In this document: positions 16,958 to 17,536 of the stretch, in pieces | How positions within the stretch are numbered: position 1 is the first letter of the stretch | Layout of the letters: the number at the start of each line of letters is the position of its first letter | DNA from: a bacterium | GTDB taxonomy: Bacteria; UBA10199; 2-02-FULL-44-16; JAAZCA01 | DNA length: 64,000 nt | Assembly (NCBI GenBank): GCA_041648665.1 | Contig: JBAZOP010000002.1 | Coordinates: 50,262 to 114,261 of the forward strand | Direction: 5' to 3' | The notes under the pieces: model-generated | Told to the model about the DNA's origin: nothing | The model's input: the letters and a program-made list of their open reading frames with translations, nothing else | Database searches by the model: none | Position numbers and translations under genes: made by a program

Positions 16958-17536
16958 TCACCTGATGGACGCCGTGGCCCCGGCCTCGGCCAGGAGCCTC
17001 ACCGCCCGATCCGCCTCCTCCTTCGACACGCCCATCATCACCGTCGAAGGGGCGCAGTCGGTGAGGTCTTTGGAGTCCTTCAGCCCCAGGCCGGTCAACT
17101 CCCGGATCTCCTTGATGACGTTGATCTTCCTTTCGCCCACCATCTGCAAGATCACGTCGTACTTCTGCTCGGCAGATCCCGGGTGCAACCCCGCGTCCAC
17201 CTCTTTCAGGAACGCAGGCACATCGACAACGCTGCCACGCAGGTCGGCGATGGCCGCGAGGAGGCGCAGGTGATCGATCGGATCCGGCATTCGCAACCTG
17301 TCGAGGATGTCGGCGACACGCTCCCTCTGCTCGTCATCCTCCATCGCCTCCTTGGCGAGGATGCTTCTCTGTTCCTCCAAATCGTAGATTTTCTCGCGGA
17401 ACGCATCGTTCTCCGCCCGGAGTTGCGGGAGATGCTCCCGGAGGGTCGCGATCTCCGCTTCCATCTCGTCCGCCGTCTGCTGCTTCTTCTTCTTCTCGGC
17501 CATGGCATCCTCCTGTTTCGTTGTTTTGCTACCCAC
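16958..17536 (-). CDS. coiled-coil protein with ribosomal protein bL12 (L7/L12) C-terminal-domain homologue
   Basis: The C-terminus [55 protein letters not shown] aligns with the L7/L12 CTD ([47 protein letters not shown]). The N-terminus is charged coiled coil. Confidence 0.6.
   Translation of the reverse strand: [192 protein letters not shown]

Follow-up and report, generated by a model that had tools for sequence, protein, structure and literature searches.

A coiled coil joined to a ribosomal bL12 C-terminal domain in a protein of probable phage origin

The gene and its C-terminal domain

The 64,000-nucleotide stretch analyzed here (positions 50,262 to 114,261 of contig JBAZOP010000002.1, assembly GCA_041648665.1; hereafter the window) carries genes for a tail sheath, a tail tube, a baseplate wedge, a hub and other tail proteins, nearly all of them on the minus strand. 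Neither a capsid, portal, terminase or other head or packaging gene nor any cellular core gene was seen in these 64 kb, and no close relative was found among deposited phages. The first-pass annotation of this DNA, made from the sequence without database searches, had spoken of a phage; sheath, tube, baseplate and a tRNA speak for this, whereas the head and packaging genes are missing from the window, and a phage is the probable source, with a prophage or a tailocin on a bacterial contig as alternatives. The gene considered here lies in the minus-strand open reading frame (ORF) 16958..17536, and its product combines an N-terminal coiled coil with the C-terminal domain (CTD) known from the ribosomal stalk protein bL12.

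Read from the GTG at 17536, the ORF encodes 192 amino acids (aa); this codon has no Shine-Dalgarno sequence and overlaps the stop of the upstream gene. Translation more probably begins at ATG 17503, because AGGAGGA is found 4 nt upstream of it, the stop codon of the upstream gene (TAG) occupies 17529-17531, and the public gene call has 181 aa. That call (P0001, MFA4971244.1), an identical protein that also begins at ATG 17503, is titled "MAG: ribosomal protein L7/L12 [bacterium]" and comes from a contig of 161,166 bp. Residues are numbered here on the 181-aa protein from ATG 17503, unless marked as 192-aa numbering. The GC content of third codon positions (GC3) in this frame is 0.86, similar to neighboring genes, and its codon composition is fully ameliorated to the surrounding genome; ORFs that overlap it on the plus strand are of the antisense kind usual in DNA with 66% GC. 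A sole second copy, in Logan SRR8542065 (L001), has the same gene call and is identical at every base, which leaves no polymorphism for an analysis of selection.

The last 67 residues are a genuine bL12 CTD, with a similarity far beyond chance. Pfam family PF00542 (Ribosomal_L12) was matched over profile positions 1-66 of 67 with 78.8 bits (cut-off 25.9; E 3.7e-22), and solved bL12 chains were matched at E 3.4e-17 in a phmmer search of the PDB. Alignment by hhalign to a profile of 43 cellular bL12 gave 99.6% probability and 60% identity, and ended exactly at the domain boundary. AlphaFold2 built the CTD as beta-alpha-alpha-beta-alpha-beta with a predicted local distance difference test (pLDDT) above 92, and Foldseek placed this model on the CTDs of Mycobacterium tuberculosis and Escherichia coli (8yeq, 1ctf) with template modeling (TM) scores of 0.92-0.96 and root mean square deviations of 0.6-0.8 Å. 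The input alignment for this main model consisted of 41 cellular bL12, which may bias residues 58-90; in a single-sequence model the CTD was too poor for use. The first-pass annotation had assigned about 65 C-terminal aa to the bL12 CTD, with Ribosomal_L12 as the Pfam family to look for, and all of these analyses bear it out. ClpS adaptors have a similar alpha/beta fold and belong to the same superfamily as the bL12 CTD (Foldseek TM ca. 0.66-0.68), but they share only 11-19% identity with the protein, with E-values at least four orders of magnitude weaker than those of bL12, and the ClpS Pfam family found no match in it.

In bL12, helices 4 and 5 of the CTD form a conserved positive surface that is bound by IF2, EF-Tu, EF-G and RF3 (PMC6753160). 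In E. coli numbering, the target agrees at K65, I66, V68, I69, K70, R73, T76, G77, L78, G79, L80, K81 and K84 with the consensus derived from 169 cellular bL12, and its change E82D is a variant present in 33% of these sequences, which were picked by similarity to the query so that all frequencies from this set are indicative only. As judged from these residues, the GTPase-binding surface is intact, and the loss of GTPase-contacting residues that the first-pass annotation named as a refuting result was not observed. The real departures from cellular bL12 are located on strand beta-2 and helix 6, and comprise E96M (E in 95% of the set), K107V (K in 95%), E111A (E in 89%), K95M (K in 58%, Met in none) and V87T (V in 96%, Thr in 1.8%). 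The bL12 CTD touches the G' subdomain of EF-G and the N-terminal domain of uL11 (PMC5207388), and the changes on the other face of the CTD would fit a relaxed constraint on ribosome-specific contacts.

The N-terminal part and the absence of a recognizable bL10-binding domain

Ahead of the CTD, a basic tip, a coiled coil, a turn with a second helix and a linker follow one another (Table 1). Residues 11-70 keep a single unbroken heptad register, with A, I, L, N, I, R, A, R and L at the a positions and M, L, L, F, L, L, D, V and L at the d positions. The heptad score, 0.67, compares with 0.40 ± 0.05 in shuffled sequences, none of 2000 of which scored as high. AlphaFold2 modeled residues 2-69 as a helix with pLDDT 90-98, and a helix of residues 2-53 was also present in the single-sequence model. 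The charged coiled coil that the first-pass annotation saw in the N-terminal half is thus confirmed. Parallel dimeric zippers of the GCN4 type typically have an Asn at one of their a positions. Here Asn32 occupies such a position, and the heptad pattern together with this residue indicates that the coiled coil most likely gives a parallel dimer. The basic region that binds DNA in bZIP proteins is not present in the protein, which has a KKKK patch only and no bZIP Pfam match; a PDB match to the PAP1 bZIP (1gd2; E 0.014) is not significant. Residues 92-111, between the helical part and the CTD, are predicted to be disordered.

Table 1. Positions, in window coordinates, of the gene, the segments of its product and other features of the window
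Feature	Position	Strand	Basis or remark
Coding sequence of the 181-aa bL12-CTD protein	16958..17503	-	ATG 17503-17501; stop TGA 16960-16958
Shine-Dalgarno AGGAGGA	17508..17514	-	4-nt spacer to ATG; read from sequence
Basic tip, residues 1-10, net charge +3	17474..17503	-	Composition by segment
Leucine-zipper-like coiled coil, residues 11-70, ca. 8.5 heptads, net charge -10	17294..17473	-	Heptad score, AlphaFold2
MPDP turn and second amphipathic helix (75-88), residues 71-88	17240..17293	-	Both AlphaFold2 models, pLDDT ca. 70 or lower
Flexible linker, counterpart of the hinge, residues 89-114	17162..17239	-	AlphaFold2, pLDDT <50 at 92-111
bL12 CTD, complete (beta-alpha-alpha-beta-alpha-beta), residues 115-181	16961..17161	-	Pfam, PDB, hhalign, AlphaFold2, Foldseek
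CTD helices 4 and 5, residues 126-149	17057..17128	-	Conserved surface for translational GTPases in bL12
Predicted intrinsic terminator	18860..18879	-	Terminator scan; 8-bp GC-rich stem and T run; ends the preceding unit
NAPRTase/PncB	15756-16928	-	Pfam, 137.7 and 82.5 bits
NAD synthase NadE	about 15004-15840	-	Pfam, 189.7 bits
PncA-like nicotinamidase, weak	14188-14991	-	PDB 3pl1, E 2e-5
VWA protein, weak	13403-14131	-	Pfam, 20.9 bits, below cut-off
PP2C_2 phosphatase	12591-13835	-	Pfam, 36.4 bits, above cut-off
565-aa orphan	10897-12594	-	Downstream of the NAD genes
tRNA-Pro, anticodon UGG	5977-6050	-	ARAGORN; Rfam, 67.6 bits; only tRNA and only Rfam family in the window
Beta-1,4-glycosyltransferase-like gene	24991-25932	-	phrog_13126, E 2.6e-39; moron, auxiliary metabolic gene and host takeover; inside the tail/baseplate module
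Calcineurin-like metallophosphoesterase	1423-2640	-	67.1 bits; low-coordinate end of the window
Radical SAM protein	3035-3814	-	30.2 bits, just above cut-off; low-coordinate end of the window

In bL12 of E. coli, which has an isoelectric point (pI) of 4.9, an N-terminal domain (NTD) hairpin of residues 1-37 forms an antiparallel four-helix bundle on bL10 and is connected by a hinge (38-49) to the CTD (50-120) (PMC3299993). A full-length bL12 with an N-terminal extension was considered for the target and rejected on the strength of four analyses. A hidden Markov model (HMM) of the cellular NTD and hinge scored 1.0 bit against residues 1-114, and in the wrong place. When the CTD was kept fixed and residues 60-114 were shuffled, the real sequence scored 92.0 against 90.7 ± 1.6 for the shuffles, 53 of 300 of which reached the real score. 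When residues 1-114 were compared exhaustively by phmmer with 1.84 billion representative proteins, the matches were the protein itself and three tandem-repeat proteins, with no bL12 among them, and hhalign gave a probability of 0.09% for the NTD. In addition, Pfam PF16320, the bL12 NTD, found no match in the target, and the equivalog model TIGR00855 scored 69.8 bits, below its cut-off of 84.4, over profile positions 55-124 only. Helix 75-88 is superficially like helix 2 of the bL12 NTD, with homology undetectable.

Absence of a recognizable NTD, the TIGR00855 score below cut-off and the wrong genomic context together indicate that the target is, to judge by sequence, not a ribosomal bL12. Its N-terminal half has no recognizable bL10-binding helix, in agreement with the first-pass annotation. 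With cellular bL12 (rplL, TIGR00855) the target shares the CTD fold, helices 4 and 5, a flexible linker, acidity and probably a dimeric state. It differs in having, instead of the N-terminal domain for dimerization and bL10 binding, an N-terminal coiled coil of ca. 60 residues, in the loss of the conserved residues E96, K107 and E111, and in lying outside an rplJ-rplL operon; that context was not found at the locus, where the neighbors are small orphan ORFs upstream and genes for NAPRTase, NadE and a PncA-like protein downstream.

The three tandem-repeat proteins (P0056-P0058) were rejected as relatives. They are of coiled-coil or formin-like type, and the summing of near-identical repeats makes their E-values look better than they are, with ca. 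33 bits for the best single stretch. Residues 58-96 (17216-17332, minus strand) resemble a motif, ..EKFAKFFKLLKMGMPxxHIKLKAxAEGLDGxLLDTP.., that is repeated at least seven times in P0058, a eukaryote-type formin-like protein of 1851 aa; its best single stretch has those ca. 33 bits, the repetition of the motif inflates the total E (7e-8), and the likeness is probably a convergent helix-turn-helix. A second local match, of residues 65-130 (16961-17311, minus strand) to positions 277-340 of the 412 of PADLOC model PDC-M07A (E 0.0011; 16.1 bits), extends from the second helix through the linker into the first part of the CTD and is probably noise.

Virus-encoded bL12 domains and relatives of the protein

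Phage proteins with a Ribosomal_L12 domain, in varied architectures and contexts, were described by Mizuno et al. 2019 (Nat Commun 10:752; PMC6375957), a study that later literature merely cites. Their domains are ca. 30-40% identical to cellular bL12, keep the residues that contact uL11, EF-G and EF-Tu, lie mostly inside larger polypeptides of up to 724 aa and at variable position, and were acquired independently several times, in widely different genomic contexts (PMC6375957). Examples are Ralstonia RSB3 ORF10, Dinoroseobacter DFL12phi1 orf75, rIIB-like proteins of N4-like phages and Salmonella FSL SP-076, and BFVD also lists viral proteins named "RplL" and "bL12 C-terminal domain-containing".

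To compare the target with such proteins, 11 other virus-encoded bL12-like segments were aligned to the cellular CTD profile, including one, P0037, from a contig of uncertain nature. Six of them, from Streptomyces Samisti12 (gp3), Ralstonia RSB3, DFL12phi1, Rhizobium X2_25, Pseudomonas VCM and Salmonella TR2, keep beta-1, helix 4 and helix 5 only. The other five, from a 595-kb uncultured phage, crAss-like cr126_1, Enterobacter SABI, Pectobacterium Nepra (rIIB-like) and P0037, have a whole or nearly whole CTD. Common to all compared is the core K65..I69-K70..R73..T76-G77..L80-K81..K84-D85, which corresponds to helix 4, loop and helix 5. With the target included, five of six viral CTDs of full length lack K95/E96 (four of five without it). 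A kept factor face with a changed other face is therefore, on the basis of these 11 proteins, the general pattern in phages, and this suggests that the surface of helices 4 and 5 may be the property under selection in this class of phage proteins.

The target can be placed, from its sequence features, as a further member of this already described class. It has a significant PF00542 match, retains the residues contacting EF-G and EF-Tu, and resides in a genome of probably viral type, as part of a non-ribosomal polypeptide in a context unrelated to rplJ-rplL and after an apparently independent acquisition. This agrees with the first-pass suggestion of an acquired ribosomal-protein moron of a kind reported in some viruses, for which there is, besides the study of Mizuno et al. 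2019 (PMC6375957), the direct recovery of such proteins here. Three traits set the target apart. Its CTD is complete and ca. 60% identical to cellular bL12, as compared with ca. 30-40% and often partial domains in the phages of Mizuno et al.; its layout of coiled coil and flexible linker was found in no other protein searched; and it lies on a 161-kb contig with a contractile tail, whereas the cultivated phages with a bL12 domain have genomes below 80 kb (PMC6375957). No synteny was detected with other bL12-domain phages or with viral loci bearing NAPRTase.

In a search of 5.8 billion proteins and in searches of IMG/VR, JGI metagenome contigs and GTDB genomes, no protein shared more than the CTD with the target, and all other matches were cellular rplL with at most 61% identity over residues 111/115-181. 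The identity of the CTD is 51-61% to many phyla, so that this domain points to no single donor or host lineage. A donor among Acetobacteraceae was rejected, as the excess of this family in the GTDB scan was an artefact of the exact search pattern KINVIKEI. Relatives were also sought through the neighboring genes, only one of which, of 223 aa, has relatives on viral contigs; these three contigs are without synteny and without a CTD, and they were discarded as phage cousins.

P0037 (Logan ERR14789958, L041 133-900, plus strand), a protein of 255 aa, has a complete, cellular-like bL12 CTD (Pfam 75.3 bits) near its N-terminus, on a contig of low GC where the neighboring genes encode SIMPL, carbonic-anhydrase-like and glycosyltransferase proteins. 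Like the target it is non-ribosomal, and the two CTDs are 55-58% identical and share the unusual features PSTV(L/M)(T/M)G and GATAS(I/V). Unlike the target, it continues after the CTD with an unrelated Asn-rich tail and has no coiled coil. A viral CTD subtype made up of the target and P0037 was considered and rejected, for the profile search gave only ordinary cellular bL12 from many phyla, its three CTD-only hits were shortened cellular genes, and no wider clade linking the two proteins emerged from it.

Among the compared phage genes, Samisti12 gp3 (L042 2285-2725, plus strand), a 146-aa "hypothetical protein", matches positions 5-37 of the 67 of the Pfam profile with 34.3 bits, in the part from beta-1 to helix 5; about 50 related Streptomyces phages of ca. 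120-136 kb have it conserved close to the left end of their genomes, and the gene beside it gives a second, very weak match (E 0.014). VCM_00181 of Pseudomonas phage VCM (L053 625-1104, plus strand) shares the motif of helix 4 and helix 5 (28.1 bits to the CTD profile, positions 10-36) and is annotated "Peptide chain release factor 1 (prfA)", an annotation that may be wrong or partial in this phage and in the related Pseudomonas phages Pyxpy01 and PHB09.

Possible action of the protein and its genomic neighborhood

The reading preferred here, to which about an even chance is given, is that the target is a non-ribosomal, virus-borne mimic of the ribosomal stalk, dimeric and binding translational GTPases off bL10. 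The coiled coil of residues 11-70 would join two chains as a parallel dimer, and a disordered linker of ca. 25 residues would tether one intact bL12 CTD per chain. Such a dimer would copy the working design of bL12, with a dimerization module, a flexible hinge and two factor-catching heads, and without the bL10 anchor. In infection it would bind the ligands of helices 4 and 5, chiefly EF-Tu, EF-G, IF2 and RF3, either free in the cytosol or at a site set by the orphan N-terminal part, and host translation would be biased or redirected as the outcome. We infer each of these properties: the dimeric state, the binding of factors, an action that does not use the canonical bL10 anchor, and an influence on translation. 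The strong Shine-Dalgarno sequence, the phage-like GC3 and the tight spacing of the gene in a co-directional array favor this reading.

Several observations count against this reading. A helix-turn-helix at residues 58-88 followed by a hinge has the topology of the bL12 NTD, and may be a diverged anchor. Mass spectrometry of purified E. coli 70S ribosomes revealed one phage protein with a bL12 domain (PMC6375957), so that such proteins may associate with ribosomes. For isolated bL12, a low affinity of EF-G has been reported (PMC5207388). Finally, the target is a singleton. The low affinity of EF-G also makes simple stoichiometric sequestration less likely, as very high expression or avidity would be needed. 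Of the first-pass proposal of a stalk mimic that sequesters translation factors or redirects them, mimicry is favored by the strong PF00542 match, the intact helices 4 and 5 and the absent NTD, while sequestration in its simple form (PMC5207388) is the part that has lost ground.

The first of these observations leads to the alternative of a stalk variant incorporated into the ribosome, which is possible although unlikely. Here the helix-turn-helix of residues 58-88, either highly diverged or convergent, would stand in for the NTD on helix alpha-8 of bL10. On some ribosomes host bL12 would give way to homodimers of the protein or to heterodimers that pair it with host bL12, and these phage-modified ribosomes would have a protruding coiled coil. 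The order of helix hairpin, hinge and CTD is that of bL12; MAFFT aligns residues 63-90 to the NTD of bL12 and pairs G90 with the invariant glycine at the NTD end; and the best PDB alignment places residues 76-191 of the query (192-aa numbering) on residues 7-122 of a bL12 chain. The pI of the whole protein, an acidic 4.93, resembles that of E. coli bL12 (PMC3299993), and the phage protein detected in purified 70S ribosomes (PMC6375957) sets an example. Against this, the four tests gave no statistical signal of an NTD, although at 60% identity of the CTD an orthologous NTD should remain recognizable. The heptad register passes straight through residues 58-69, which MAFFT equates with helix 1 of the NTD, so that they are continuous in register with the preceding 47 residues, unlike the short NTD of the antiparallel four-helix bundle (PMC3299993). 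Moreover, the target has lost conserved residues of ribosomal bL12 outside the factor site, and the tagged version of the phage protein of Mizuno et al. was unusable for ribosome purification (PMC6375957).

The genes that surround the target bear on a further alternative. Past the nearest predicted terminator the transcription unit begins with four small orphan ORFs of 74, 87, 91 and 156 aa, which have no Pfam matches, and the target is the fifth gene. NAPRTase starts 29 nt after it, in a tightly spaced, co-directional gene array. NAPRTase, NadE and the PncA-like protein (14188-16928, minus strand) make up most of the Preiss-Handler route, and no adenylyltransferase of NadD type was seen in that stretch. 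In the stretch 10897-14131 TerY-P was not detected by PADLOC, and no kinase was found there by Pfam or PDB; VWA stays below the Pfam cut-off and only PP2C passes. Hence, of the first-pass placement of the gene at the head of an operon for NAD salvage and TerY-P, the position directly before the NAPRTase, NadE and PncA-like genes stands, whereas the gene is fifth rather than first and the TerY-P assignment finds no support. A conserved linkage with NAD salvage was rejected too, since none of 39 other viral loci carrying NAPRTase (34-43% identical) has a bL12-like gene.

Restoration of NAD+ is a known theme of phage counter-defence. This offers a context for the improbable alternative of an anti-defence or anti-toxin decoy, in which a free CTD dimer would bait effectors that dock on the stalk to gain access to the A site, such as CARF-RelE RNases of the Cami1 type or other stalk-dependent toxins, off the ribosomes during phage replication. 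Cami1 reportedly uses the ribosomal stalk, according to a paper of 2023, and the bL12 CTD of 8phj (Cami1 on the 70S ribosome) is among the chains that match the model of the target. A decoy needs the CTD surface without the bL10 anchor, which is what was observed, and the NAD-salvage genes NAPRTase, NadE and PncA-like directly follow. The support is entirely circumstantial, however; the linkage with NAD salvage is not conserved across the 39 NAPRTase loci, and the only PADLOC match of the target, that with E 0.0011, is weak. That a soluble dimeric stalk decoy and the adjacent NAD-salvage genes would constitute a counter-defence island is very doubtful.

A recent capture, in which a piece of cellular rplL was fused to a phage coiled-coil protein and serves as a generic, ClpS-like fold or has no function yet, is distinctly improbable: the ca. 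60% identity of the CTD to cellular bL12, as against 30-40% in cultivated phages (PMC6375957), suggests a younger acquisition, the target is a singleton and ClpS structures are among the weaker fold matches, but the gene has fully taken on the GC3 and codon composition of the phage genome, the frame is intact and the Shine-Dalgarno sequence strong, the substitutions are non-random, sparing the factor site and changing the other face as in other phage versions, and the target is not similar to ClpS in sequence.

Viral proteins with a bL12 domain have been on record as a group since 2019, and both the class and the hypothesis of a stalk mimic are already in the literature; what the target adds is a distinctive and experimentally convenient layout. 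It is an unusually clean test object, small (181 aa), with a complete, nearly cellular CTD whose factor face is intact, and with a coiled coil replacing the ribosome anchor. As such it sets the binding of translation factors apart from a place on the ribosome, so that the competing ideas (factor sink or recruiter, modified stalk, decoy for toxins that dock on the stalk) become directly accessible to tests in vitro.

The gene directly upstream of the target (17529-18002, minus strand), an orphan of 156-157 aa, ends in a C-terminal zinc ribbon of the form CxxC-x12-CxxC (CYDCGEPIPFGAVGDICEDC). It has a very weak match to phrog_54, which is DksA-like (E 0.034), and its product could be a partner of the target.

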